DNA of 32,000 nucleotides from Haloferax volcanii DS2 (GCF_000025685.1 NC_013966.1:300001-332000), one strand, 5' to 3'. Positions 900-32,000 are shown, counted from the stretch's first letter. A program made the numbers and translations. Notes: a model not told the origin generated them from the letters alone.

Positions 900-1130
900 C
901 TCGCCCGTACTCTCGATTCGAGCCGAACGGAGGGTACAACCCCAGACGTGCGGCAGTCGGAGCGTCGCGTCGCCGCCGAGGGAGGCGAAAGTACGGAGCG
1001 GGAGAGACGACACGGCATCACAAAACCACGGTCGTGAACCGACGTTCGTCCAGTTTTCGGTGACGCGTCCAGCGGAGCGACTGCCGTACGATGGCGAACA
1101 CCCGAAGCCGGGTTTCGTCGGGGACGCTTC

Positions 1131-1470
1131 AGAATATATTATTGAATACTGTCTTGTTATTCTATTAGTTCCTAAATTGATGTGAGTGATTTGAGTTCAA
1201 TAACCTCGCATTTTCAGCAATAAAGAAGATTTATTGAAAATTATTTCTATATGTGTATTGAAATCACAAAATAGGCGAGAATAGTGGGTATTATTTAGAT
1301 AAATGGCTATAAATGGCCTTCGCCCCGGACACACACGACGTAATCCGAGTTAGTAGCAGAAAGCCGTCTAAACGCCTATTCTGTATTCGACTGTAAAACG
1401 GACGGCCGGCAGCCATCGACATAACTTATCAAAATTTAGTATTATCTGTGTAAATGGGGTTTTTCCATTA
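1131..1470. other. strongly AT-rich non-coding island in a long (~740 bp) intergenic gap
   Basis: Hand count of nt 1141-1200 gives 17 G+C out of 60, while flanking genes are clearly GC-rich. No credible ORF. 'tattgaa' occurs three times and 'aaatggc' occurs as a tandem pair. Confidence 0.7.
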
Positions 1471-1643
1471 TGCATCACCTATCGACCTCGACGGGCCACC
1501 GGTCGAGTACCCGAGACCGACGAGCGACGAGCGTCCGCATCACGGCACGCTCTGTGGATTCCGGCAATTGGCCGCCACCGCACGGAGTACGCGAGAGTGG
1601 TGTCGACGGCTGCCGAAGCGTCCGCGGGTCGCAACGGTCACGG

Positions 1644-3020
1644 TCACGCGTCGGGCTCGGTAGCCGGCGCGTCACCGAACAGATACTGAAGCAGGTAGCC
1701 AGCGAGCAGCGCGGCGACGGTGACGAGCGCCGCGACGGGATGCTCGACGGAGAGCCCCACGGCGAGAAGCGCGAGGAAGCAGCAGGCGATTGCGGCCGTC
1801 AAGAGACCGCCGGGCGCGCGGAACGGCGCGGCAACGTCACCGCGATAGACGCGTAGCCCGACGAAGGACGCGATGTTGATGGCGTACGGGAGGACCGTCC
1901 CGACGAGCGCGGCGAGGACGATTCCACCGACGACCTGCCTCCCGATGACGACAGCGCCGGCGCCGATGGCGACGGTGCAGAGCGCGACGTACGGCGAGTT
2001 CGTCTGCTCGCTGGTGGCAGCGAACGCGCTCGGGAGGAGGCTCCGGTCGGCGAGCGCCGAGAGGACGCGCGCGGAACTGGTCAGGCCGACGAGCATCGTC
2101 GTGAAGATGGCGATGAGCGCGGCAACCGGGAGGAGGTACTGCGCGAACACCGGAAGTCCGGCGTCGCCGAGGACGGCCGAGAGCGGCGCGACCATCACGA
2201 GGTTTCCGTTCCGGAAGGCGCTCGGCGCGACCGTGAGATGGAGCGCGAGGACGATAGCGGTGTAGAACGCAGTCGTGAGAAGGAGGCTCCCGACGATTGC
2301 GCGGGGTATCGTCTCGTTCGGCCGCTTTACTTCGCCGGCGGCCGCGGGGACGACTGTCCAGGCCCCGTAGCCTGTGATAGCGAGGCCGACGGCCGCGAGG
2401 AATTCCGTCCCGCTTCCGGTGACGAACGGCGTGGCGTTCGACGCGTCGCCGTTGGCGAGGCCGACGCCGCCGACGACGGTGAGCACCGTGAGGAGGAACG
2501 CGGTGAAGACGAGGTTCGTCCGCTTGGTGACGTCGATGCCGGCGAGCGTGACGCCGAGGCTGGCAACAATCGCAAGCAGCCCCAGCGGCACCGTCTGACC
2601 CTGGACGCTTGCGAGTTCGGGAATCGCGCCGAGGTAGTTCGCCACGTACCACGCCGAGACGGCGACGCCGAACACCCACCCCAGCGCGTACGACGTGCCC
2701 TCCATGTACGAGGCGAACCGGCGGACGGCCCTGCTTCTCCCAAGGGTCTTCACGGGAAAGATAGCCGGGCCGCCCGACTCGGGAAACGCGGTTGCGAGTT
2801 CAGTGTAACAAAGTGCGATACTGACCATCCCGACCCCCGCGACCAGCCACGCGAGAACCGCGGCCGGGCCGACTAACTGACCAGTGAACGCCGGAAAGAA
2901 GAATATCGACGAACCCATCATGCCGCCGACGCTCAACAGTAGGAGGTCCCAGAGTCCGACCGTACGAGGACCGTCGCTCTCGGTAACGGCTGTCATGCCT
3001 TTCGTTCCGAAAGTTCGCAT
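1644..3020 (-). CDS. APC-superfamily amino acid/polyamine permease
   Basis: 458 aa with about 12 predicted hydrophobic helices. The N-terminal 'LLLSVGGMMGSSIFFFP' and 'YTELATAFPESGGP' are typical APC permease motifs. An alternative ATG start is at 2996. Confidence 0.88.
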   Translation of the reverse strand: MRTFGTKGMTAVTESDGPRTVGLWDLLLLSVGGMMGSSIFFFPAFTGQLVGPAAVLAWLVAGVGMVSIALCYTELATAFPESGGPAIFPVKTLGRSRAVRRFASYMEGTSYALGWVFGVAVSAWYVANYLGAIPELASVQGQTVPLGLLAIVASLGVTLAGIDVTKRTNLVFTAFLLTVLTVVGGVGLANGDASNATPFVTGSGTEFLAAVGLAITGYGAWTVVPAAAGEVKRPNETIPRAIVGSLLLTTAFYTAIVLALHLTVAPSAFRNGNLVMVAPLSAVLGDAGLPVFAQYLLPVAALIAIFTTMLVGLTSSARVLSALADRSLLPSAFAATSEQTNSPYVALCTVAIGAGAVVIGRQVVGGIVLAALVGTVLPYAINIASFVGLRVYRGDVAAPFRAPGGLLTAAIACCFLALLAVGLSVEHPVAALVTVAALLAGYLLQYLFGDAPATEPDA

Positions 3021-3462: not shown

Positions 3463-4617
3463 ATGATGGATATGAGCGTGACAGTCGAACGAGAAACGGC
3501 CATATCCATCGACGGACTCCGGAAATCGTTCGCCGGAGAGCCAGTACTGCGTGGAATAGACCTATCAATCGACGAGGGAGACTTCTGCGTCGTCGTGGGG
3601 TCCAGCGGGAGCGGGAAGTCGACGCTGCTGAAATGCATCTCGGGATTGCTCTCGTTCGAACGGGGCGCGGTCTTCGTCGACGGCGAAGACGTGACGAACC
3701 GCTCGGTCGAAGCGCGGGACATCGGATTCGTGTTTCAGGACTTCGAAGACCGGCTGTTTCCCCACATGACCGTCGAGGAGAACGTCGCTTTCGGCCTGCG
3801 TGAGGCCGGGACGTACGACGCCGAGGAGATATCCCGGCGGGTGGACGAGACCCTCCAACTGCTGTCTATCTCAGAGACAAAGACGAGTCTGCCCTCGGAG
3901 CTCTCGGGCGGCCAGCAACAGCGGGTGGAACTGGCGCGGCAACTCGTCCGCGAGTGCGACGTGATGTTGTTGGACGACCCGCTTGCGGACTTAGACTACA
4001 AGCTGCAAAAGCGGATGGTGCTGGAGATACGGCGAATCCACGAGGAGTTCGGAAGCACGTTCGTCTACGTGACTCACAACCAAGACCAGGCGCTGAAACT
4101 GGCCGACAAACTCGTCGTGATGAACGACGGCGTCATCGAACAGGTCGGCACGCCCGAGGAGGTGTACGACGCCCCCGAGACGGCGTTCGTCGGCCGGTTC
4201 ATCGGCGACAACAACCCGCTTCTCGGGACGGTGACCGAACACGACGGCGACCGGGTCGTCATCGACACCGACCTTGGGAGCGTCGTCGCCGAGTCGCGGG
4301 AACAGCCGCCGTCGGTGGGCGAGGAGACGATGGTGCTCCTCCGGCCGGAGGACGTCGCCCTCGGGGACGACGCCGACGCGTGCGACAACGGCTCGACGGG
4401 GACCGTCGAAGACCTGACGTACACCGGCGAGTATACCGAGTTCGCCGTCTCGTTTCCAAACGTGACCCGCGAGTTCCAGGTCCGTCGCTCGGGCGATGTC
4501 CGCCGATTCGAGGAGGGCGACGAGATTCGAATCGGCTGGGACGCCGCCGAGGGCGTCTGCTACGACCGGCTGAGCGCGTCCGACTCGGTGACCGTCGACG
4601 ACCTGATGGAGGTGTGA
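3463..4617 (+). CDS. ABC transporter ATP-binding protein (PotA/CysA-like, with C-terminal TOBE-like extension)
   Basis: Walker A 'GSSGSGKST', signature 'LSGGQQQRV', Walker B 'VMLLDDPL', then 'DYKLQKRM'. A C-terminal region of about 130 aa follows the ATPase core. Confidence 0.93.
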   Translation: MMDMSVTVERETAISIDGLRKSFAGEPVLRGIDLSIDEGDFCVVVGSSGSGKSTLLKCISGLLSFERGAVFVDGEDVTNRSVEARDIGFVFQDFEDRLFPHMTVEENVAFGLREAGTYDAEEISRRVDETLQLLSISETKTSLPSELSGGQQQRVELARQLVRECDVMLLDDPLADLDYKLQKRMVLEIRRIHEEFGSTFVYVTHNQDQALKLADKLVVMNDGVIEQVGTPEEVYDAPETAFVGRFIGDNNPLLGTVTEHDGDRVVIDTDLGSVVAESREQPPSVGEETMVLLRPEDVALGDDADACDNGSTGTVEDLTYTGEYTEFAVSFPNVTREFQVRRSGDVRRFEEGDEIRIGWDAAEGVCYDRLSASDSVTVDDLMEV

Positions 4618-4618
4618 G

Positions 4619-5785
4619 ATGGCGACGAGCGACCACACCCACGCGGACGAAGCCAGCGCGGGACTCTCGGTCGACGGCCTGACGAAGATATACCCCGACG
4701 GCACGCTCGCGGTCGACGATATCAGCTTCAGCATCGACGCGGGAGACTTCTGCGTTATCATTGGTCCCTCCGGCTGCGGCAAGTCCACGACGCTCCACTC
4801 ACTCGTCGGTAACGTGCCGCCGACCAAAGGGACTGTGACGCTCGACGGACGCGACATCACGGACGCGCCGACCTATCGCCGCGACATCGGACTGGTCTTT
4901 CAGGACTTCCAGCTGTTCCCGCATCTCACGGTCGAGGAAAACATCCGATACGGGCTCGAACGGATGGACGTGTCCGCCGCGGAAGCCGACGACCACGTGG
5001 CGTCGATGGCCGAGATGATGCAGTTGGAGGGGATGCTTGACCGCGACCCCGCCGAACTCTCCGCCGGCCAGCAACAGCGCGTCGCGTTGGCCCGCTCGCT
5101 GGTGCTCGAACCGAAACTGCTCCTCCTCGACGAACCGCTCGGCGACATGGACTACAAGCTCCAAAAGCGGATGGAGCGGGAGCTGCTCCGACTCCACCGC
5201 GAACTGGAGACGACGTTCGTCTACGTGACCCACGACCAGACGCAGGCGATGCGGCTCGCCGACCAGATGGTCGTGATGAACGACGGGCAAATCGAACACT
5301 CCGGGCCCGTCAGGGAGGTGTACAACCGGCCGCGGACGGCCTTTACCGCCGCGTTCGTCGGGGACTCGAACCTGTTTTCGGGGACGGTGACCGACGTGGA
5401 CGCCGGGGGAGCCGTCGCCGTCGTCGACACCGACTTCGGCGCGTTCCGCGTCTCGACCGCGAACGCCGACTCGAAGCCCGAGAACCTCGTCGACCGGTCG
5501 GTGGTGTTCGCCGTCCGCCCGCAGTTCGTTCGCCTCGAAGACGGCGAGAACGGCCTCGACTGCGACGTTGACGACGTCATCCACCGCTCCGGCGAGGGGA
5601 CGCAAATAGTAATGACCGCGCGCGGGAGCGAGGGGACGAAGCAGATACAGGCGAAGTCCGACGACCGGGTCGAACCGGCCGCCGACGCGGTGACGGTCGG
5701 CTGGAACGCGGACGATGCCATCCTCCTCGAACGGACGAGCGTGGCCGGCGACGTGGACCTCCAAGAGGACATCCTCGGCGAGTAG
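4619..5785 (+). CDS. second ABC transporter ATP-binding protein (PotA-like, distinct paralog)
   Basis: Walker A 'GPSGCGKST', signature 'LSAGQQQRV', Walker B 'LLLLDEPL'. The ATG lies 1 nt after the upstream TGA at 4615-4617. Confidence 0.93.
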   Translation: MATSDHTHADEASAGLSVDGLTKIYPDGTLAVDDISFSIDAGDFCVIIGPSGCGKSTTLHSLVGNVPPTKGTVTLDGRDITDAPTYRRDIGLVFQDFQLFPHLTVEENIRYGLERMDVSAAEADDHVASMAEMMQLEGMLDRDPAELSAGQQQRVALARSLVLEPKLLLLDEPLGDMDYKLQKRMERELLRLHRELETTFVYVTHDQTQAMRLADQMVVMNDGQIEHSGPVREVYNRPRTAFTAAFVGDSNLFSGTVTDVDAGGAVAVVDTDFGAFRVSTANADSKPENLVDRSVVFAVRPQFVRLEDGENGLDCDVDDVIHRSGEGTQIVMTARGSEGTKQIQAKSDDRVEPAADAVTVGWNADDAILLERTSVAGDVDLQEDILGE

Positions 5786-8328: not shown

Positions 8329-9084
8329 ATGAGCCGAGTAGCGAACAAGACGGCGTTGATCACCGGCGCGTCCAGCGGCATCGGCCGCGGCGTCGCCGTC
8401 GCACTCGCGGAGGCGGGCGCGACGGTCGGGGTGAATCACTATCCGAGCGACGAGGAGCGAACGCGGGCGGCCGAGGTGGTCGCCGAAATCGAGGCGGCCG
8501 GCGGCGAGGCGGCAGCCTTTCCCGGCGACGTGAGCGACGCGGCGAGCGTCGACGAACTCGTCGACGGGTTCGAGGCGACGTACGGGACGCCGGACGTGCT
8601 CGTCAACAACGCCGGCATCCTCAGGCGGTCCCGTCTCGACGAGATGAGCGTTGCGGAGTGGGACGAGGTGTTGGACGTCGACCTCCGCGGGGTGTTCCTT
8701 GTGACCCGCCGCGTCGTCCCGGGGATGATCGACCGCGGGTCGGGGAGCGTCGTCAACGTGGCGTCGCAGTTGGGCTTCAAGGGTGCGGCGGGGTTCACCC
8801 ACTACTGCGCCGCCAAGGGCGGCGTCATCGCGTTCACTCGCGCGCTGGCGCGCGAAGTCGCCCCCGACGTGCGCGTGAACGCCATCGCGCCCGGGCCGGT
8901 CGAGACGCCCCTTCTCAGCGACATCTCCGAGCAGTGGCGGCGCGAGAAGGCGGCCGAACTCCCGATGGAGCGGGCCGGCCGCGTCGAGGACGTGGCACCG
9001 ACGGCGGTGTTTCTCGCCAGCGACGAGAGCAGCTACTACACGGGGCAGACGCTCTCGCCGGACGGCGGCGACGCCATGCACTGA
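8329..9084 (+). CDS. SDR-family oxidoreductase (classical short-chain dehydrogenase)
   Basis: Cofactor motif 'TGASSGIGRG', 'NNAG', and catalytic 'YCAAK'. 251 aa. Confidence 0.9.
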   Translation: MSRVANKTALITGASSGIGRGVAVALAEAGATVGVNHYPSDEERTRAAEVVAEIEAAGGEAAAFPGDVSDAASVDELVDGFEATYGTPDVLVNNAGILRRSRLDEMSVAEWDEVLDVDLRGVFLVTRRVVPGMIDRGSGSVVNVASQLGFKGAAGFTHYCAAKGGVIAFTRALAREVAPDVRVNAIAPGPVETPLLSDISEQWRREKAAELPMERAGRVEDVAPTAVFLASDESSYYTGQTLSPDGGDAMH

Positions 9085-23134: not shown

Positions 23135-23490
23135 GTGTTTCCATGGCCGGTATCCGCGTTACCCCTGTACGTCCCCTCGACGAAAGGAGACGGAACAGCA
23201 GTGTTTGCAACGAACCTCAGGATTGGGCCAGCCGAGGCCGAGGCGTACTGTCAGCGATACAGCCGCCGATGGCAAATCGAAAACGCGTACAAGTCGATCA
23301 AGTACGACTTCTTAGCGAAAACCTCCTCGAAAGACTACCGCGTCAGGCTCTTCTACTTCGTGTTCGCAGCGTTACTGCACAATATCTGGCGGCTTACCGA
23401 CTTTCTCCTGAAAGCAGGAGTAGCGGCGATATGGACTATGCGCCTGTCCTGACAGCTGGTGAATGGTGGAATGGGTTTCTTCTGCACTGA
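23135..23490 (+). pseudogene. 5'-truncated, frameshifted IS4-family (haloarchaeal ISH-type) transposase remnant
   Basis: It contains the IS4 C-terminal Y-(2)-R-(3)-E-(6)-K signature 'YSRRWQIENAYKSIK'. The reading frame switches near 23425 from ORF 23135..23452 to ORF 23143..23490 ('DMDYAPVLTAGEW...'). Only about 115 aa of C-terminal sequence is present, with no N-terminal DDE region. Confidence 0.8.
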
Positions 23491-23713
23491 TCCCAGCAGA
23501 CTAAGCAGCTCCCAATTCGGTTCGCCCTTCGTGAGTGGAAACACTATCTCGAGGCAGGAGTTTCGGACGGAAATCCGACATTTGCAGAGTTCGATTCGAT
23601 AATCGACCGAAGAGGTCGATCAGGATAGATAATTCTGACTAATACATCATTGAATAAAACTGAACGCTGGCCATCCTCCGAAACAGTGGCCATCCCGACC
23701 AATAAATTTGGTA

Positions 23714-23765
23714 TAGCGATATATGATTCATTGAGTAATTTCGGCAGCGGGTCGATATATCGCTA
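23714..23765. repeat. 11-bp perfect inverted repeat with 30-nt spacer
   Basis: 'tagcgatatat' (23714-23724) and 'atatatcgcta' (23755-23765), in an AT-rich non-coding stretch. Confidence 0.6.
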
Positions 23766-23767
23766 AT

Positions 23768-23794
23768 CCTCGTTGTCTACGTGCGACAACGAGG
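23768..23794. other. perfect 10-bp stem / 7-nt loop hairpin
   Basis: 'cctcgttgtc' (23768-23777), loop 'tacgtgc', 'gacaacgagg' (23785-23794). It lies immediately after the previous inverted repeat. Confidence 0.6.
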
Positions 23795-24115
23795 TAATCG
23801 AAAGTGGTAGTTCGAAGTCATATTTATGCTAACTCCGAAAACCTTGGTTCTTAGAACGAGCCACTAACGGGCGACGCTTGTTTCCGTGCGACGAGGTGCT
23901 CGACCGGTCGGGGGGTTCGAGCTGTGACTTACCCTTGTAGGCTGTCGGTTTTCGCTACCTGACAGTCTGTGAGCGACTTTTCTGGAATCGGATAGTCGAT
24001 TTCAGCTACTGGCACGTCAAGTCGTACTGTTCCCGATGAGGCCCAGTTGGCTGTCGATGTAGCCGTTGTTGTCGGCACGGACAATCCGGCGGGTGACTCG
24101 CGCTGTCCGCGAGAG

Positions 24116-24907
24116 TTAGCGACGTAGTTCCACCAGTGGCTCGTCACACTGCGGGCAAGTGAGTCGCTCGACGGTCACGGACGCACAACACGTCTCGTGA
24201 GTCACCTGCTCGTATTCGGTCGATTCGTCACACCGGAGACAGCGGTCAACCGTTGCGCGGACGCTTCGGAGGAGGGCGGCGATTTCGTCCGGCGGACGTT
24301 CGTTCCACCCAGTATATCGCTCCGAGAAGACCGCTTTCGCCCGAAGGTCCGCGTCAAGCGCAAGCGAGGACGGCCACGCTGCGATAGGGTCGCCGTCGTC
24401 CGAAAGCGTGTAGCGACCCTGCTGGCTGGTGAACGAGCCGTCGGTCGGAGGGAGTTCGAGGATGTCGCGTGCGAGCGAAGCCGATGGCGACTGCGGCGGG
24501 TCAACCGCGGCCAGCGACGCTTTGAACTCCGGGTCGAGAGCGAAGTCTCCATCCGAGGACTCGCGTAAAAGCCCCTGCGAGAGAAGCCATGCGTCGGTGC
24601 TCTCCTCGCGTGACACCGTCAGCGGCTGCTTGCCGAACCACGCGAGGAGCCGTGACGGCAGGTAGCGCTTCGTCAGTTCCGGCGTGCCCGGAACGAGGTA
24701 GCCTCGAAAGTACACCGTCGCGAGCGCCCCGGTCAACGCCACAACGGCCGCGACACCGGACAGCGGAATCAAGACGACCGCGACGAGTGCCGAGAGAGCA
24801 ACGTTCACCGCCGTACAGGCCCAACACCGATTCGAGCCAGTGTACTCGTCTCGACGCAGTCGGCCACCGAGGTCGTTCGTAACGCGGGATAGAGGCACGT
24901 ATGTCAC
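24116..24907 (-). CDS. membrane-anchored zinc-ribbon protein of unknown function, co-transcribed with the halocin precursor
   Basis: GTG start 10 nt downstream of the halocin stop. An N-terminal 'CWAC' is followed by two hydrophobic helices ('AVNVALSALVAVVLIPLSGVAAVVALTGALATVYF'). The C-terminus is 'CLRCDE...(15)...CC...(10)...CPQCDE', i.e. CxxC...CxxC. Confidence 0.72.
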   Translation of the reverse strand: MTYVPLSRVTNDLGGRLRRDEYTGSNRCWACTAVNVALSALVAVVLIPLSGVAAVVALTGALATVYFRGYLVPGTPELTKRYLPSRLLAWFGKQPLTVSREESTDAWLLSQGLLRESSDGDFALDPEFKASLAAVDPPQSPSASLARDILELPPTDGSFTSQQGRYTLSDDGDPIAAWPSSLALDADLRAKAVFSERYTGWNERPPDEIAALLRSVRATVDRCLRCDESTEYEQVTHETCCASVTVERLTCPQCDEPLVELRR

Positions 24908-24917
24908 TGCCCCCTAC

Positions 24918-25835
24918 TTAGCACCAGTTCGTCCGGTCAGCACAGACCTCTTCAGCGACGGCTTCGCCGCATCCGGAGAGGGCGTCGGCCACGTCGCAGA
25001 TGATACCGACGAAGCCGACACAGGTCAGGCCGGCGATGGGGACCGCAATCCCGGTGAGCCCGCAGATGAACGCGCCGGTCGCCGCGCAGCCGACGCTACA
25101 AGTGAGGCCGACGGCGAACCCACAGGCGTAACAGCCGTCGACATCGACGTCGTCGTCGAGGAGGTCCCACGCGAGGTTCGACAGGTCACTCCCCGTGGTG
25201 AACCCGTCGTAAATCTCGTCGATGACGGCGTTCGTGTCGACGTTGTTGACGGCCCGCCGAGTCGCATCGGCATCGAGGTCGAGTTCGGTAGACGCCAAGC
25301 CATCGGAGCTGTTTGCGGCGGACACCGTCTGTTCACCGGCCTCGGCGTCGAATCGCTCGATACGGGTGGTGAATCCGTCTTTCGTCTTGTGCGTGTAATC
25401 GAGAACGCTCAGAATGAGCGAATCCGACGTGGCGTCTTCGGCGAGCACGACGGCGGCTTCGGCGTCGTCGTTCGGGTGCTTGACCGGGTACTCGACGACG
25501 TACCGGTGAATCTTCTCGCCGTCCGGCGCGTCGTCGGCGGCGACCTCGACTTCGCCGACGGTGACCGACTCGCCGCGAGACACTGTCCCGTCACGGGAGT
25601 TCGCCTTCGCTTCGAGACGGTCGAACTCGTCGCTCTTCGCCAACCGAGTCGCCACTTTCGCCTCAGCTTCGCCGTCGAGAATGCTGATGTTCTCGGCAGC
25701 GACGGCGTTCCCGGCGGCGGCAGGGGACAACGCGAGCCCCGTCCCGACCGCGCCGGCGCGACGAACGAAACTGCGTCGGTTGAGTCCGCTCTCCTGTTCG
25801 TTACTGTCGTGTTCGTTGTCGTTAGCTCGGGTCAT
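24918..25835 (-). CDS. halC8: halocin C8-like archaeocin precursor (Tat signal + pro/immunity-like region + Cys-rich C-terminal peptide)
   Basis: Twin-arginine signal 'NRRSFVRRAGAVGTGLALSPAAAGNAVAAE', an acidic middle region of about 180 aa, and the C-terminal 'DVDVDGCYACGFAVGLTCSVGCAATGAFICGLTGIAVPIAGLTCVGFVGIICDVADALSGCGEAVAEEVCADRTNWC' with 10 Cys. I chose the start at ATG 25835; the upstream ATG at 25880 is also in frame. Confidence 0.85.
   Translation of the reverse strand: MTRANDNEHDSNEQESGLNRRSFVRRAGAVGTGLALSPAAAGNAVAAENISILDGEAEAKVATRLAKSDEFDRLEAKANSRDGTVSRGESVTVGEVEVAADDAPDGEKIHRYVVEYPVKHPNDDAEAAVVLAEDATSDSLILSVLDYTHKTKDGFTTRIERFDAEAGEQTVSAANSSDGLASTELDLDADATRRAVNNVDTNAVIDEIYDGFTTGSDLSNLAWDLLDDDVDVDGCYACGFAVGLTCSVGCAATGAFICGLTGIAVPIAGLTCVGFVGIICDVADALSGCGEAVAEEVCADRTNWC
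24921..25151 (-). other. predicted mature halocin peptide region (77 aa, 10 Cys, hydrophobic)
   Basis: This is the C-terminal segment of the precursor starting at 'DVDVDGC'. The boundary is inferred by analogy to the ~76-aa, 10-Cys halocin C8, and the exact cleavage site is not determinable from sequence. Confidence 0.55.
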
Positions 25836-25991
25836 CGTGTTACCCAATCGACACCATGGCGGGGACACACATTGCGTCATGGACCGTTAGAGAACCGCAC
25901 CGACTGCGGTCGCCGCGCACGAGGTGACGTAACGACACAGCAACTGCACGAATCCGTCACGCTCTGCGGAGACGGTGCAGTTCGGAAGTGG

Positions 25992-26015
25992 TGACTGTAA
26001 TCCGGATTTCAGTCA
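25992..26015. promoter_or_regulatory. 24-bp near-perfect palindrome (candidate operator) 7 nt upstream of the regulator start codon
   Basis: 'tgactgtaatccggatttcagtca' has 11 of 12 positions self-complementary, with the only mismatch at t25998/t26009. It overlaps the position where a TATA/BRE for a leaderless 26022 start would sit. Confidence 0.5.
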
Positions 26016-26021
26016 ACAGAA

Positions 26022-26849
26022 ATGTCAAGTAATGAAGGTCAAAAGTCGTCGGTGATGCCGTCTCCAACCACCGAAGAGATAATCGACCTCGTCACCCGCC
26101 GGTGGGACGTCTTAGAGTCGCTTTCGGATCGCGCATTATCCAAGCCGGAATTAGAGGCGACGCTCGGGGTCTCTCGTTCGACGGTGGACCGGGCAATCGG
26201 TGAACTCGAAGCGGCGTCGATGGTCGTCCGCGACCCGTCGAGCGGCTACCGGCTGACGGAGCTCGGTCGGCCGGTGTATCGGCTGTGCAAACGGACTCGA
26301 CGGTGTCTCGATGCCGTGACCGAAGCGCACTCCCACGGGTCGGCGGTTCCATCGGGCGCGAACGGCGAGCTACCGATGTACGACGGGGCGAGGCTCGTGT
26401 CCTCGGAGCCGCACGTTCCGGACAAGCCACTGCAACATCTCCTCGACACGATGCGCGAGGCGGAGTCGCTACGCGGCTACACCCCGGTCGTGTTACAACA
26501 GTACGTCGAGGTGTGCCACAAGCACGCCACGCGCCGAGAGGCCGATGTCGAACTCGTCGTGCCCCCGCAAGTCCATCAGTGCCTGCGGACGACGTATCCC
26601 GACGAGTACCGACGCGCGCGTCGGGCCTCGTGCGTCCGCCTCCACGAAACGTCGGCCTCGCTGCCGTTCGGACTGCTCCTGTTCGGTGAGGGGGCGGACC
26701 GGACGTGCGCGCTCGTGTCGTACTCGAAGGCCGGTGCGACGGGCGTGCTGTTCAACGATACGGCCTCGGCGATTGGTTGGGCGACGCAGACGTACCGCGA
26801 GCTCAAGGCCGATTCGACCCCGGTCGACCAGCCGAAAGCGACGCAGTAA
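26022..26849 (+). CDS. winged-helix transcriptional regulator with large C-terminal domain (haloarchaeal ArsR/MarR-like wHTH + effector domain)
   Basis: The N-terminal 'LSKPELEATLGVSRSTVDRAIGELEAASMVVRDPSSGYRLTELG' is a wHTH, followed by a C-terminal domain of about 170 aa. It is divergently transcribed from the halocin gene with a 186-bp gap. Confidence 0.8.
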   Translation: MSSNEGQKSSVMPSPTTEEIIDLVTRRWDVLESLSDRALSKPELEATLGVSRSTVDRAIGELEAASMVVRDPSSGYRLTELGRPVYRLCKRTRRCLDAVTEAHSHGSAVPSGANGELPMYDGARLVSSEPHVPDKPLQHLLDTMREAESLRGYTPVVLQQYVEVCHKHATRREADVELVVPPQVHQCLRTTYPDEYRRARRASCVRLHETSASLPFGLLLFGEGADRTCALVSYSKAGATGVLFNDTASAIGWATQTYRELKADSTPVDQPKATQ

Positions 26850-26857
26850 CCGTGCGC

Positions 26858-27058
26858 TCATCCGTCGAACTCCGGTGTAAACAGCTCTTCGACGGAACAA
26901 TCGAAATAGCGCGCGAGCTTGAACGCGAGTTCGAGCGACGGGTCGTACCGCGAGTGTTCGATGGCGTAGATGGTCTGTCGACTGACGCCGACCGCAGTCG
27001 CCAGTTCCTCTTGAGTGATGTGTTCTTCGGCCCGCTTCACTCGGATGTCGTTCTCCAT
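26858..27058 (-). CDS. XRE-family (HTH_3) small transcriptional regulator
   Basis: 66 aa. 'ITQEELATAVGVSRQTIYAIEHSRYDPSLELAFKLARYF' is a canonical Cro/C1-type HTH. Confidence 0.88.
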   Translation of the reverse strand: MENDIRVKRAEEHITQEELATAVGVSRQTIYAIEHSRYDPSLELAFKLARYFDCSVEELFTPEFDG

Positions 27059-27063
27059 CGGTG

Positions 27064-27459
27064 TCAGACGCGCTGTCGGAACTCGGTCGCGCCGAGGACG
27101 CAGAACATCGTCCCGAGACCTGCGACCGCGAGGAAGGTGACTGCGCTCGGGACCGGCCGGGTACTGAGGGCGTACGACGCGAACACGCCGACTAACGACG
27201 CGAGCATGACTCCGCCGGTCGTACTGAGCGCGCGGTCGATGTTGCGCACGTCGCGTTCGTCGACCACGCTGTCGGAGGACGACCCGCTTCGAACCGCGTA
27301 TCCGACGTTCGCGAAGACGGCGATGACCGCAGGAACGACCACTAACTCACCGACTGAGGGAGGGGGTTCCGCACCGAGAAAGGGAGAGACAACCGCCGAC
27401 AGGAGCGCCGGAACGACGAACAGCAGGAAACTGTACGTCGGTGGGAGCCACCGCGACAT
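27064..27459 (-). CDS. small integral membrane protein (4 predicted helices), operon partner of the XRE regulator
   Basis: ATG at 27459 lies 1 nt after the upstream TGA (27461-27463). Hydrophobic segments alternate with a short acidic loop. Its stop is 5 nt before the XRE start. Confidence 0.7.
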   Translation of the reverse strand: MSRWLPPTYSFLLFVVPALLSAVVSPFLGAEPPPSVGELVVVPAVIAVFANVGYAVRSGSSSDSVVDERDVRNIDRALSTTGGVMLASLVGVFASYALSTRPVPSAVTFLAVAGLGTMFCVLGATEFRQRV

Positions 27460-27460
27460 C

Positions 27461-27691
27461 TCACTGTCCCCCACTTCCGAACTCGCTCGACAGGATTCCG
27501 GGGAGGTCGGTCAGCCAACTAACGACCGCACAGACGATCATCACGCCGACAGCGGCCATATAGCCCCACACCGTAACCGTGTCGAGTACAAAGTCGATTG
27601 CGACGAATCCCGAGAGGATGACAGCGCCGCTGACCGCCGCCGCGACGACGACGAGCAGCGCACCGTAAGCGCGCATCGGACTGTTTACCAT
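27461..27691 (-). CDS. small integral membrane protein (2 predicted helices)
   Basis: 'MVNSPMRAYGALLVVVAAAVSGAVILSGFVAIDF...YMAAVGVMIVCAVVSWL'. The start at ATG 27691 is supported by a TATA-like element about 28 nt upstream. The ORF track extends to 27748. Confidence 0.6.
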   Translation of the reverse strand: MVNSPMRAYGALLVVVAAAVSGAVILSGFVAIDFVLDTVTVWGYMAAVGVMIVCAVVSWLTDLPGILSSEFGSGGQ

Positions 27692-27716
27692 ACGATAAAC
27701 GTGTATTTCCAACAAC

Positions 27717-27722
27717 ATAAAT
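27717..27722 (-). promoter_or_regulatory. TATA-box-like element for the small-membrane-protein/XRE operon
   Basis: Minus-strand 'atttat' (within 'ctttacatttatg') centred about 28 nt upstream of the ATG at 27691. Confidence 0.4.
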
Positions 27723-28145
27723 GTAAAGGCCGCTTTCCATAATGTCAAACGGACACGTCATCCATTCGATACCGATGGCGAGTACAGCGGCGATTCTCAC
27801 CGAGTTCGAAATCTCCGACAAACTATCCGATACGAATCTGGTGACTCGCTATACTGCGGTCGGGTTGGCTCTGGTTCGGCACGGTTGGTGTAGAACGACA
27901 TATTCCAATCGTTCTGGTTGGAACGACTCCCGAGAACGAGTCGGACAACAGGCGACCACCGCGCTCGCTGAAACGGTCGGTCTGGCCCGCAATCTGCGAA
28001 CTGCTCTTCCCCGCCGGAGCGCCGGTCGCCACGGCTCTCGCAGGTCGTTCGTCACTCGTACTTGGAGCCGCCTCGAATCAAACGACGGGGTATATCGCAC
28101 ACTCGACGGCTCGAACAACCGCTCGTCGAGACGTTCGCTATCAGT

Positions 28146-29093
28146 TCATTCGACAGCGTTCCTCGTCGCTCCCTCGTCGGAAGGCTGTGAATCCGCTGTC
28201 CCACCAGTCCAGTAGTCGGCTAGCGGACCGTCAACACCGGTGAGTTGAATCCACGCCTGCGAAGTAATTCCGAGAACGACGATCGAGATGATCGACGACT
28301 CCACCGAGAGTGCCGTCTGAGTGAGTAAGAAGGTCGGTGAACCGAACGTCGCATCCGGCATGACCTGTCCGAGAAGCAGACTGAACGCCATATTGATTCC
28401 GTAGGGAACGATGAGGGCTGCACCCAGTCGGAGGCGGTTCCCAGCGACGGTGCGCCAACTTTGGACGAACGCTGTCGTGACCGTCGCATCGCGAACGGCG
28501 ATTTCTTGCTCGACAAACGCAAACGTCAACAGGACGAACCCGACTGGCAGCAGACCCACCAGTATCGCTGGAACAACGAGGAGAGGTGTGTACCACGCAC
28601 CGACGAGCGTCGTCCGCAGTGATTCGGGAAGCACGGCGAAGACCCCGACCGTCCCGAGAGTGACGACGATCACGACGAGGAAGATCAGAACGAACATGGC
28701 CAGTACCCTGAGTAACGTGGCGATGAACAGTCGCAGCGTCGCCCAGCCAAGAGTTCGGAACACCAACTGTTCCGGGAGGTGATCGCGCCCGTCGTCGATG
28801 AGCGAACGAACCGCAACGATCTGTATCGGTACCGTCAGTACGCCGCCAGTGAGCCCGCCGAGGAGTGCGGCGCTCGCTGAGACCAGCGACGGGAGGGCCG
28901 TCCCGGGTGCCGGCGTCCCTGGTGGTGACGCCGCTCCGGCCATCCCGAGCGGGACGTACGTGGTCGCCAACACCCAGACAAACGCGCTTTGGAGAACAAC
29001 TGCAACGAAAAAGGTCGCCATGAGGAGGACGCCATTTCGCGTGAGAACGCGTCCGAGTCCGTCGGACACAGTCTGTCGAACGTGGAGGACCAT
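28146..29093 (-). CDS. polytopic membrane protein of unknown function (paralog A)
   Basis: About 315 aa with 6-7 hydrophobic helices. It shares an ungapped conserved block with the 30580..31347 product ('QEIAVRDATVTTAFVQSWRTVAGNRL' versus 'QAIVIDGASAIDSFKRSYRVVRGNLL'). ATG 29093 aligns with the paralog N-terminus; GTG 29129 is also possible. Confidence 0.75.
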   Translation of the reverse strand: MVLHVRQTVSDGLGRVLTRNGVLLMATFFVAVVLQSAFVWVLATTYVPLGMAGAASPPGTPAPGTALPSLVSASAALLGGLTGGVLTVPIQIVAVRSLIDDGRDHLPEQLVFRTLGWATLRLFIATLLRVLAMFVLIFLVVIVVTLGTVGVFAVLPESLRTTLVGAWYTPLLVVPAILVGLLPVGFVLLTFAFVEQEIAVRDATVTTAFVQSWRTVAGNRLRLGAALIVPYGINMAFSLLLGQVMPDATFGSPTFLLTQTALSVESSIISIVVLGITSQAWIQLTGVDGPLADYWTGGTADSQPSDEGATRNAVE

Positions 29094-29294
29094 ACACCCC
29101 GCTTCTCCGTGCCGTGAGTTCAAACCCACGGGTGCTTTTCTGGTTCGGAAAATATCGCGTTCGGGGGAAGGAGGCCCATTCCGGGGGCCTGACGAACGAC
29201 AGGAGGACCGAGACGGAGACCGGCACGTGGGACGATGGCAGCGAGACGCTAAAGTGGGGCCGTCGACTTTCTGGCCTGGAAAAAGAGTAGAGGG

Positions 29295-29302
29295 TATTAA
29301 TT
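29295..29302 (+). promoter_or_regulatory. TATA-box-like element upstream of the wHTH gene
   Basis: 'tattaatt' centred about 27 nt upstream of the GTG at 29325. This favours 29325 over the TTG at 29301, which overlaps the element itself. Confidence 0.4.
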
Positions 29303-29324
29303 GCTCCGCCCTGAAGTGTTCGAC

Positions 29325-29672
29325 GTGAGTGAGGAGCCCTCCGCCGAGGAAATCTTCGCGCTCCTCGATGACGAGTACGCGCGTGCGATCCTCGCTCAGA
29401 CGAGCATCGAACCGATGTCCGCCAAAACCTTGAGCGATCGATGTGATGCCTCCCTACCCACGATATACCGGCGCACGGAGCGACTCGTCGACTGTGACTT
29501 ACTCGCAGAACAGACCGAAATCGGTGAAAGCGGCCACCATTACAGCGTCTTCGAGGCGCGACTCGACAGTCTTACCGTCGAAGTGGACGAGGGAGACATC
29601 TCAGTGAGTCTCGACACGGGCCGGGCCGAAGACCCGGCCGACCGCTTCACCGACCTCTGGGAGGGAATCTGA
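29325..29672 (+). CDS. small winged-helix (ArsR-like) transcriptional regulator
   Basis: 'EEIFALLDDEYARAILAQTSIEPMSAKTLSDRCDASLPTIYRRTERLVDCDLLAEQ' is a typical haloarchaeal wHTH. Its stop is 1 nt before the next gene. Confidence 0.8.
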   Translation: MSEEPSAEEIFALLDDEYARAILAQTSIEPMSAKTLSDRCDASLPTIYRRTERLVDCDLLAEQTEIGESGHHYSVFEARLDSLTVEVDEGDISVSLDTGRAEDPADRFTDLWEGI

Positions 29673-29673
29673 G

Positions 29674-29997
29674 ATGGTTCAACCCAGCATGGACCTGTAC
29701 GTGAACTACCTCGTGTTGCTGGCGGTGACGCTACTGGCGTTGGTTCTCAGCCTTGCCATCGTTTTTCAAGCCTACCGCGGATACCGACGCAATCGAAGCC
29801 AGCCGATGCTGTGGCTCGCGGTTGGACTGGTCCTCCTCACGGCCGTGCCGTTCGTGATATCGTTGACGGTCGCATCGGCCGGAACCGCGCTCGGGTTCGA
29901 CCCGGTTGTGTACACGTACTACGTCCCCATACTGAACAGACTCATCGAAGTCGTCGGACTGGTCTGTATCCTCTATTCGCTTTATAGCCGACCCTGA
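29674..29997 (+). CDS. small 3-helix membrane protein, operon partner of the wHTH regulator
   Basis: 107 aa with three hydrophobic segments and a basic loop 'AYRGYRRNRSQP' after helix 1. The ATG is 1 nt after the upstream stop. Confidence 0.75.
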   Translation: MVQPSMDLYVNYLVLLAVTLLALVLSLAIVFQAYRGYRRNRSQPMLWLAVGLVLLTAVPFVISLTVASAGTALGFDPVVYTYYVPILNRLIEVVGLVCILYSLYSRP

Positions 29998-30239
29998 ACC
30001 ACTGCTATCGCTTCGAGTTCCGCTCGATAGTGCCGTCATCCCGGAACTGTGGCGTCGTTGTATCCATCGACAGGTGATAGCGCCCGGAGGTCGTCCGACA
30101 GACCGGAAACATCTCTCTTGAGGGAGTTGTCTCAGTTCTCCGATGAGAGGAGACAGCAGTCAGTAACGGGGGTTCGTCGTTCACGTCGACCGCTCGTTCG
30201 AAGCGACAATCCGCTGGAATCAGAAGGACGGGAGAGGAC

Positions 30240-30422
30240 TCACCTTGCTGTCGGGTCGTCGCTTGAACGCTCGTACGGCTCCGCAGTCGCGTCGTGCCGC
30301 CCTCGATAAGAGAGCCAGACGACCACGGTCAACGGAACGAACACAATCGCAACGGTAGCCGCCGGTAGAAAGGAAACGAAGGGAGCGAACACCGTCCATG
30401 AACTGATGGCGTCGCAGGACAC
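30240..30422 (-). CDS. possible small membrane protein (tentative)
   Basis: 60-codon ORF with a GTG start, a hydrophobic N-terminal two-thirds ('WTVFAPFVSFLPAATVAIVFVPLTVVVWL') followed by 'SYRGRHD', and an acidic tail. No family support. Confidence 0.3.
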   Translation of the reverse strand: MSCDAISSWTVFAPFVSFLPAATVAIVFVPLTVVVWLSYRGRHDATAEPYERSSDDPTAR

Positions 30423-30579
30423 GGACGAAGTGCGTTCGTCGCAATAGACAGTGGGCAGTTCGCGCGTTCGAGAGAAGAACCCCGTCGAAACCGATTCCGC
30501 TGGGAAGATTAGTAATCTGACCCACCGGACGGGGCAGAGTGTTTGCGGGCAAACGAACGACTGCGTACTGCGCCGTAGT

Positions 30580-31347
30580 TCACCCGGTCAGTTCGTCGTA
30601 GACGGCGACGGAGAACGTGAGCAGGAACGCCGACACGACACTACCGATGACCGCCGCGAGGAGACCCACGACGACGAGGAGAGGCGTCGAGAGCGTCGGC
30701 AGACCGGCCGCCGAGGCGGCGTCGGCGCTAGCCAAGAGCGAGACGCCGGCGTAGACACCACCGGAAAGCGCGCCGATGACCAGTGCGAGAAGCATGTACC
30801 CGACCGTCGCCAGAAGGTTCCCTCGGACCACGCGATAACTCCGCTTGAACGAGTCGATTGCGGACGCACCGTCGATGACGATAGCCTGGCCGTAGAACTG
30901 GACGAAGAACGCCACGACGAGATACAGGAGTCCCGCAATGGCCGCCAGACCGATAAACGCCGTCCCGATAGAGCCGTGCGTCAGGAACGCCCCGAAGCCG
31001 GCCGCGACACCGACCGCACCGATGACGCCGTTGACGACGAGCAAGAGGACGTAGGCGATCAGCAACGAGAGATAGTTGGCCTTCCCGTCGGCGACGAAAC
31101 GGGACAGCGAGCTACGGGTGGTCAGGGCCTCGTCGGCCATCCCGAACATGCCGCCCTGGATGAAGGGCGTCACGAGGAGGAAAACCGCGGAGATACCCAG
31201 CGAGTAGAGCGTCGAGACGAGCGGATACGACGACTGCAACAGCAGCTGGGGGACTAGCAGCGCGAACACGATCAGTTGTGGGACCAACAGACCCGGAGCA
31301 CGCTTGAGCGCACCCGGTGTCCGTCGGAGGGCTTGGAGGACTCCCAT
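30580..31347 (-). CDS. polytopic membrane protein of unknown function (paralog B)
   Basis: 255 aa with about 6 hydrophobic helices and the conserved block shared with 28146..29093. A TATA-like element lies about 26 nt upstream of the ATG at 31347. Confidence 0.8.
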   Translation of the reverse strand: MGVLQALRRTPGALKRAPGLLVPQLIVFALLVPQLLLQSSYPLVSTLYSLGISAVFLLVTPFIQGGMFGMADEALTTRSSLSRFVADGKANYLSLLIAYVLLLVVNGVIGAVGVAAGFGAFLTHGSIGTAFIGLAAIAGLLYLVVAFFVQFYGQAIVIDGASAIDSFKRSYRVVRGNLLATVGYMLLALVIGALSGGVYAGVSLLASADAASAAGLPTLSTPLLVVVGLLAAVIGSVVSAFLLTFSVAVYDELTG

Positions 31348-31370
31348 GGATGAGAAAACGAGGCCCGATG

Positions 31371-31376
31371 GTATAA
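31371..31376 (-). promoter_or_regulatory. TATA-box-like element upstream of paralog B
   Basis: Minus-strand 'ttatac' centred about 26 nt upstream of the ATG at 31347. Confidence 0.4.
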
Positions 31377-31608
31377 CCGCCGACGCTGGTTTTCTGACTC
31401 GGAAAATAAGTCACAGTGCCGTTGTTTCGAGAGCCGGAGAACGCCACCGACCAAGAAGGTGAACGGTCTCGACGTGAATTCCGTCAATGAGACGGCTCAT
31501 TGGAGAGGTCACTCTCGGGGACGTTCCCGACCCCGCATCGGCGTCCGTGAGCATTCGCTATCGCCTACTGAGTAAGAGATACACTGGCCGTGAATCGTTC
31601 AGCTCGTT

Positions 31609-32000
31609 TCAGGCCCCCGGAACCCCAGACTGTCCATCGTTGGGGCGGAAGAGGCGGCCGATTCGTCGGGCTAGAGTGCCGAGGGCGAATCCAAGGATTC
31701 CGATGGGGATACCCCAGAGTAGTGCGAGGAACAGCGCAGTTCCGAGCGTCTCGACGGCACCGACTGTCTCGAAGTGCATCGCCGTCGTGCCGAAAAGCCG
31801 ATGAAGGTTACTCGGTGAGAAGTGCGCAATCGGCAGTCCGTATCTGGAGAGACCAATCCCGAAGATGGGGCCCATCACGAGAGCTATCGACGGCACCAAC
31901 CCCGAGTTTTTCGTCGAGAAGATTGTCGCGAGCGCCACGAGCGTACTCAACCCGAGGAGGGCGACAGCGGTGGGTCCAGTGGTGCTCCAGAGACCTGCAA
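31609..32000 (-). CDS. membrane protein, 5'-partial (continues beyond window end)
   Basis: The hydrophobic product has no stop in frame between 31950 and 32000 by hand translation ('AGLWSTTGPTAVALLG' precedes the TTG at 31950), so the gene probably starts outside the window. Confidence 0.55.
   Translation of the reverse strand, partial: AGLWSTTGPTAVALLGLSTLVALATIFSTKNSGLVPSIALVMGPIFGIGLSRYGLPIAHFSPSNLHRLFGTTAMHFETVGAVETLGTALFLALLWGIPIGILGFALGTLARRIGRLFRPNDGQSGVPGA

Follow-up and report, generated by a model that had tools for sequence, protein, structure and literature searches.

A halocin C8-type precursor gene in a portable six-gene cassette of Haloferax volcanii DS2

The closest described relatives of the gene analyzed here are halocin C8 and its precursor ProC8 (Natrinema sp. 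AS7092 and Natrinema altunense; UniProt P83716). ProC8, a 283-aa protein, is exported through the twin-arginine translocation (Tat) pathway (bioRxiv 10.64898/2026.07.27.741052, citing Sun et al. 2005, Li et al. 2003, and Besse et al. 2017). In its passages on this system, the same preprint describes cleavage of ProC8 by a yet-unnamed protease into HalI and the 76-aa HalC8, to which sensitive cells respond by swelling and lysing. Those passages also place halR upstream and halT1-3 downstream of the Natrinema gene and describe halU as conserved in Natrinema and Haloterrigena. A helix-loop-helix is reported as essential for HalI in the title of Mei et al. 2008, as cited in PMC11509114.

We analyzed a 32,000-nucleotide stretch of H. 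volcanii DS2 DNA (NC_013966.1:300001-332000; here, the window), in which a sequence-only reading had proposed a halocin C8-type precursor at positions 24918 to 25835. That reading gave no strand. The features relevant to the gene and its surroundings are as follows.

23166 to 23689, plus strand: insertion sequence (IS) remnant (open reading frame [ORF] 23135 to 23452), comprising the 3′-terminal ~105 codons of a transposase gene of the IS4/ISH type (RWQIENAYKSIK) and the element end
24116 to 27821: six-gene halocin cassette, 3.7 kb, delimited by blastn against Haloferax gibbonsii ATCC 33959 (locus L001; 90% nucleotide identity)
24116 to 24907, minus strand: DUF8054 paralogue, 263 aa, with an N-terminal CxxC, two transmembrane (TM) helices, the motif RGYLVPGTPxLTKRYLP, and a C-terminal Zn ribbon
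24918 to 25835, minus strand: halC8-like gene, encoding a predicted Tat signal (aa 1 to 47), a HalI-like acidic domain (aa 48 to 228), and a HalC8-like peptide (aa 229 to 305; nucleotides 24918 to 25151, stop included)
25836 to 26021: divergent intergenic region, 186 bp, with blocks GTGTGACGnATTnGTGCAG, ACGGTCCATGA, and ATTGGGTAACACGATG conserved in a six-locus alignment
26022 to 26849, plus strand: HalR-like regulator, 275 aa, with winged helix-turn-helix (wHTH) HVO_A0261_N and FilR1_middle domains (Pfam), divergent from the halocin gene
26858 to 27058, minus strand: XRE-family HTH protein, 66 aa (PF01381, E 9e-17), conserved in L001, L014, and L006
27064 to 27474, minus strand: predicted 4-TM membrane protein, 136 aa (131 aa in RefSeq), conserved in L001, L014, and L006
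27476 to 27748, minus strand: small membrane protein, 76 to 95 aa depending on the start, first gene of a three-gene minus-strand run (76-aa call in L006 and Haloferax lucentense)

The halC8-like gene is an intact minus-strand ORF of 305 codons, whose product has the N-terminal stretch MTRANDNEHDSNEQESGLNRRSFVRRAGAVGTGLALSPAAAGNAVAAEN and ends in DVDVDGCYACGF...CADRTNWC. Read on the plus strand, the same interval yields a meaningless antisense product rich in R, G, V, and D, which assigns the gene to the minus strand. A start at 25880, 45 nt upstream, would give the longest ORF and was rejected: all homologues and the RefSeq model begin at the Met at 25835, and in L006/L007 a stop lies two codons after the upstream ATG.

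Both halves of the product match curated family models over the whole length of each model. Residues 52 to 164 align with positions 1 to 106 of the 106-position Pfam model PF22862 (Hac8_like_N; 151.7 bits against a cutoff of 27, E 1.1e-44), and residues 235 to 305 align with positions 1 to 69 of the 69-position NCBIfam model TIGR04449 (halocin_C8_dom; 46.7 bits against a cutoff of 24, E 4.9e-12). These matches rule out a lack of similarity to the family. The three segments described by the sequence-only reading are also present. Residues 1 to 47 consist of the twin-arginine motif NRRSFVR, an Ala/Gly h-region, and an AVA-A c-region, and N19-R20-R21 does not vary among the aligned close family members, which supports the proposed export signal at the level of the motif. 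The acidic region, put at about 180 aa, spans 181 residues (48 to 228) with a pI of 4.15, 42 D+E against 16 K+R, and no Cys. The 77-aa C-terminal segment (residues 229 to 305, DVDVDGC...TNWC) is hydrophobic (GRAVY +1.06), 31% Gly+Ala, and carries exactly 10 Cys (positions 235, 238, 246, 250, 258, 272, 280, 289, 298, and 305).

An exhaustive phmmer search over 1.84 billion representatives returned 23 related clusters in all, while word-indexed homologue searches, profile search included, found only six or seven halocin relatives, and locus scans with a 7-sequence alignment yielded three genome loci and one metagenome locus. When 19 diverse members were aligned, nine Cys columns were invariant, and a minority of the more divergent sequences had the tenth Cys shifted by a single alignment column. 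The representative of the ProC8 cluster (P0007, 283 aa), whose C terminus is almost the published HalC8 sequence, is 41% identical to the 305-aa product. In the alignment with the product of the ProC8 gene taken from the N. altunense AJ2 genome (locus L003), a single one-residue indel suffices to bring all 10 Cys into register. The sequence-only reading had named a lack of family similarity and nonalignable cysteines as findings that would count against it; similarity is present and the cysteines can be aligned, so it stands on both points. Together, the sequence comparisons support a halocin C8-type precursor with a predicted Tat signal, a HalI-like N-terminal part, and a 10-Cys C-terminal peptide.

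Structural modeling was of limited help. A PDB search found no sequence relative of the product, and an AF2 model of the precursor built from a 6-sequence alignment was poor (pLDDT 46) and did not inform the fold of the peptide. Within that model, the best-predicted element is a helix-loop-helix at residues 55 to 80, followed by a β-sheet; its predicted position fits the helix-loop-helix reported as essential for HalI.

We therefore favor a ProC8-type halocin precursor, at a probability of roughly 0.88, with export, cleavage, toxicity, and immunity inferred by analogy with the Natrinema system. The Tat pathway would export the 305-aa protein by means of its NRRSFVR signal. An extracellular cut just before or within DDD-VDVDGC, homologous to PA|DIDITGC of ProC8, would then release a hydrophobic, 10-Cys peptide of ~77 aa, probably with five disulfides, that would kill sensitive haloarchaea by damaging the envelope. 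The N-terminal HalI-like part of ~180 to 228 aa, with its predicted helix-loop-helix, would be kept by the producer and neutralize the peptide, conferring self-immunity. Expression would probably be controlled by the divergent HalR-like wHTH/FilR1 regulator. The gene itself travels within the 3.7-kb cassette on DNA of the Haloferax megaplasmid type. Direct support comes from the two domain memberships, the Cys register, the signal motif, the selection acting on the gene, the association with the regulator, and the portability of the cassette.

Selection was estimated as dN/dS by the Nei-Gojobori method against five homologous loci of informative divergence. Values for the C8 peptide are 0.01 to 0.08, with 99% identity at a dS of 0.56, and those for the HalI-like part are 0.09 to 0.25. 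The gene is intact and under purifying selection, with the tightest constraint on the putative toxin. These values bear on the possibility that the window holds an orphan copy serving immunity only, which would shield its host from the HalC8-type peptides of neighbors while its own peptide is not an active toxin. Such a copy would suit a HalI-like domain that is well conserved as a family, and toxins are not always kept, since some relatives have decayed (P0005/L016 is frameshifted, and the copy on pNRC200 is split by IS elements). However, an immunity-only relic is disfavored because the putative toxin is the most constrained portion of the gene, and the retention of all 10 Cys would be unexpected in a dispensable toxin moiety; we regard this explanation as very unlikely.

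Slightly less probable still is that the C terminus is an unreleased membrane anchor or structural element with a nonantagonistic role, such as signaling or stimulation of DNA uptake, as proposed for halocin H4. The hydrophobicity of the segment over its 77 aa would suit an anchor, release of the peptide in the window clade is argued by analogy with Natrinema, and in Haloferax mediterranei DNA uptake has been connected with a halocin (PMC6759562). Against this, the homologous ProC8 segment is described in the preprint passages cited above as released and bactericidal in Natrinema (bioRxiv 10.64898/2026.07.27.741052), and the window peptide is 57% identical to HalC8, with its Cys in the same register. 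A modular toxin would also fit the occurrence of the C8 segment as a protein of its own (P0025, 73 aa) and within fusions to large proteins (P0017, 955 aa). Finally, both strands here carry long overlapping ORFs (e.g., 24840 to 25994 on the plus strand, 384 aa), but a chance ORF or antisense artifact of GC-rich DNA is refuted by the two above-cutoff HMM matches and by strong purifying selection in the minus-strand frame, and homologues of the product are known across genera.

The ProC8-type reading extends to the neighboring regulator. The gene upstream of N. altunense halC8 also encodes HVO_A0261_N and FilR1_middle domains (24% identity, E 2e-16), and because the two-domain architecture is identical in Natrinema and the window, the HalR association is conserved across genera. 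A HalR-like regulator likewise adjoins halC8-like genes in L001, L014, L006, L007, L016, and L004. In the intergenic region, the conserved blocks persist down to relatives with ~69% protein identity, and a 24-nt near-palindrome (inverted repeat I7, 25989 to 26018) abuts the regulator start and is kept only in the closest relatives. These elements are possibly operator sites or a long 5′ untranslated region, and we infer from them a regulatory role for the region from 25836 to 26021.

On its other side, the halC8-like gene is followed by the DUF8054 paralogue, whose GTG start lies 10 nt past the halocin stop and is preceded by GGGGG. Given this spacing, the two genes are probably cotranscribed, and DUF8054 appears to be translationally linked to the halocin gene. 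Homologues of the DUF8054 product carry PF26236/7/8 (DUF8054_N/M/C), a family with 376 matches that is widespread in haloarchaea. The window-type protein retains all family-invariant residues, including the invariant Cys and the RGYLVPGTPxLTKRYLP motif, and is under purifying selection (dN/dS 0.23 to 0.28). Its AF2 model is confident (pLDDT 85.7), and a fold comparison with that model matched no solved PDB fold. A full-text literature search on DUF8054 found nothing.

DUF8054 genes repeatedly neighbor halC8-like genes, in four or more arrangements. The tandem pair is found in the window, L001, L014, L015, L016, L006/L007, and L018 (the L015/L016 tandem DUF8054 is 66% identical). L004 (halocin 44% identical) has DUF8054 on the strand opposite the halocin, and L017 (halocin 24% identical) has it divergent; in Halobacterium sp. 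GN101 it adjoins the halocin divergently but is frameshifted. Halocin-adjacent copies (e.g., L001 8931-9722, L015 1133-1915, L004 757-1569, L017 1122-1994, and L020 3529-4474) resemble one another no more than they resemble core copies (29 to 39% identity), which suggests that DUF8054 was recruited to these loci repeatedly or has diverged rapidly. Conversely, DUF8054 was absent within ±8 kb of the halC8-like genes of Natrinema and Haloterrigena and within ±5 kb of those of Haloferax larsenii and pNRC200. Halolamina and its relatives lack a halocin in the vicinity of DUF8054, which stands there in the core order CBS protein, DUF8054, M24 peptidase; Halorubrum and several megaplasmids have the gene in other contexts. 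Plasmid DUF8054 genes of Halorubrum, Halorussus, and Haloarcula were checked and have no halocin annotated nearby; the family is therefore not exclusively halocin linked. The H. lucentense plasmid pSVX82-2 (L018) carries a second paralogue (911 to 1729, minus strand) ~5.5 kb from the halocin-linked copy and 34% identical to it, adjoining RNase HI and phnDCEE. Replacement of the left flank at the IS scar explains why the window has no such second copy.

From this pattern we tentatively suggest, as a possibility that is still rather doubtful, that the halocin is not a single-gene system in the window clade and that DUF8054 is an accessory, providing extra immunity, a resistant decoy of the target, or help in maturation or export. 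The recurrent neighbor is a modest lead, offering a concrete candidate for an immunity role or target; if core DUF8054 were the target or receptor, it would point to the mode of action of halocin C8.

The sequence-only reading had placed the gene in a compositionally distinct, IS-flanked island consistent with a mobile locus. Mobility is supported: the cassette recurs in H. gibbonsii ATCC 33959 at 90% identity with other genes on both flanks, and it is therefore portable. The rest of the description is overstated. The GC content of the gene is 0.64, ordinary for the window, and that of the cassette is 0.63 to 0.64, like most of the window; only 22.5 to 24.0 kb is low (0.51 to 0.56). The IS component amounts to one 0.5-kb transposase remnant on one side, inside this low-GC flank; it is 89.5% identical to the 3′ portion of a transposase gene from Halogeometricum borinquense pHBOR02. 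Among about 30 ORFs of the window scanned with Pfam, none was an intact transposase or IS, and only this remnant turned up. Positions 23706 to 32000 are collinear (~98%) with the H. lucentense and Haloferax alexandrinus plasmids and positions 1 to 23700 are not, so the remnant marks a rearrangement breakpoint. The accurate description is of a mobile cassette that adjoins an IS scar. An Rfam search of 22.6 to 28.2 kb found no family.

The three-gene run from 26858 to 27748 (minus strand) is conserved together with the cassette in H. gibbonsii, H. lucentense, and the metagenome contig L006. The 27064-27474 gene is labeled a hypothetical protein in H. lucentense, and a Pfam scan of its 136-aa product found no family match; nor could the smaller membrane protein of the run be assigned to a family. 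To the left of the IS remnant, positions 1 to 22650 encode transport and catabolism functions: an amino-acid permease, two ABC ATPases, an M20 peptidase, a luciferase-like monooxygenase, an SDR protein, an SBP, an amidohydrolase, a thermosome-type chaperonin paralogue, an aldehyde dehydrogenase, a class III aminotransferase, and an Lrp/AsnC regulator. This block is only ~75% identical to megaplasmid genes of other haloarchaeal genera.

The practical value of the locus lies in a clean, intact 3.7-kb cassette that is portable and belongs to a genus amenable to genetics. It suits work on three questions about halocin C8, namely the identity of the protease that cuts the precursor, the target of the peptide, and the means by which HalI protects the producer.

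Among described systems, the window product shares with Natrinema ProC8 the three-part architecture and a peptide of 76 to 77 aa. The N. altunense HalC8 is identical to the window peptide at 44 of 77 positions (57%) with all 10 Cys in register, whereas overall identity to ProC8 is only 37 to 41% and that of the HalI parts is ~30%. Relative to Natrinema HalI, the window protein has insertions of ~8 aa at 96 to 103 and ~20 aa at 205 to 226, which account for its 305 aa against 283 in ProC8. Before the predicted mature N terminus, the window product has LLDDD where ProC8 has PTPA; because these residues are unlike, the cleavage site is uncertain and, by homology to PA|DIDITGC, would be DDD|VDVDGC or DD|DVDVDGC. 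The HalR-type wHTH/FilR1 regulator adjoins the gene in both systems but is co-oriented with it in Natrinema and divergent in the window. The Natrinema neighbors halU and halT1-3 have no counterpart in the window cassette, which instead carries the DUF8054 gene, the XRE regulator, and two small membrane-protein genes that are not at the Natrinema locus. A tblastn search with the proteins of the window cassette and its flanks against ±8 kb of N. altunense halC8 found the halocin as the sole counterpart, and the ORFs beside that gene encode a 534-aa multi-TM protein and SBP, permease, and ATPase proteins.

A second subfamily, from Halobacterium and H. larsenii (including Halobacterium sp. GN101 megaplasmid 2 and pNRC200), has both Pfam/TIGR domains and the 10-Cys domain and is plasmid borne, at ~30% identity to the window product. 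In contrast to the window, a conserved 68-aa two-TM protein follows the halocin in this subfamily. Two-TM proteins of 65 to 69 aa lie beside halC8-like genes of other subfamilies in Halobacterium GN101, H. larsenii, and two metagenome contigs (L020 5940-6146, L022 5935-6141, L004 1622-1831 on the minus strand, and L017 3119-3316), directly 3′ of the halocin in three loci and, in L004, upstream of it on the opposite strand. Three of the four end in ...YYAGVSxRSD, and the window cassette has no counterpart. Candidate roles for this small protein are immunity or an accessory function. On pNRC200 of Halobacterium salinarum NRC-1 (L021), the halC8-like gene is split (4995 to 5783 and 8764 to 8970), with its last ~33 codons 3 kb away past ISH30 and ISH27-2 and with ISH8C just upstream; it looks like an IS-inactivated halocin gene, although it is annotated as a halocin C8-like CDS. 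In L017, a 322-aa protein without a Pfam match is encoded two genes downstream of the halC8-like gene (4592 to 5560, plus strand). It matches the signal region of the halocin profile weakly (E 3e-4) and may be merely another Tat-signal protein.

The nearest relatives lie within Haloferax. RefSeq WP_006600928.1, a "halocin C8-like domain-containing protein" that is also a MULTISPECIES entry for unclassified Haloferax, is 98.7% identical to the window product, and copies with 97 to 98.7% identity are present on plasmids of H. lucentense (pSVX82-2, 285 kb) and H. alexandrinus (297 kb). These plasmids have the same six-gene cassette, and their right-hand neighborhood matches to the window end. To the left they carry phnDCEE and a second DUF8054 gene, in contrast to the IS remnant and the block of unrelated metabolic genes in the window. 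The window copy adds little to the halocin C8 family, since the family, its architecture, and its occurrence in Haloferax are already covered by curated models and RefSeq. Its identification as halocin C8-like is correct and already known, the 97 to 98.7% identical copies being labeled halocin C8-like in RefSeq.
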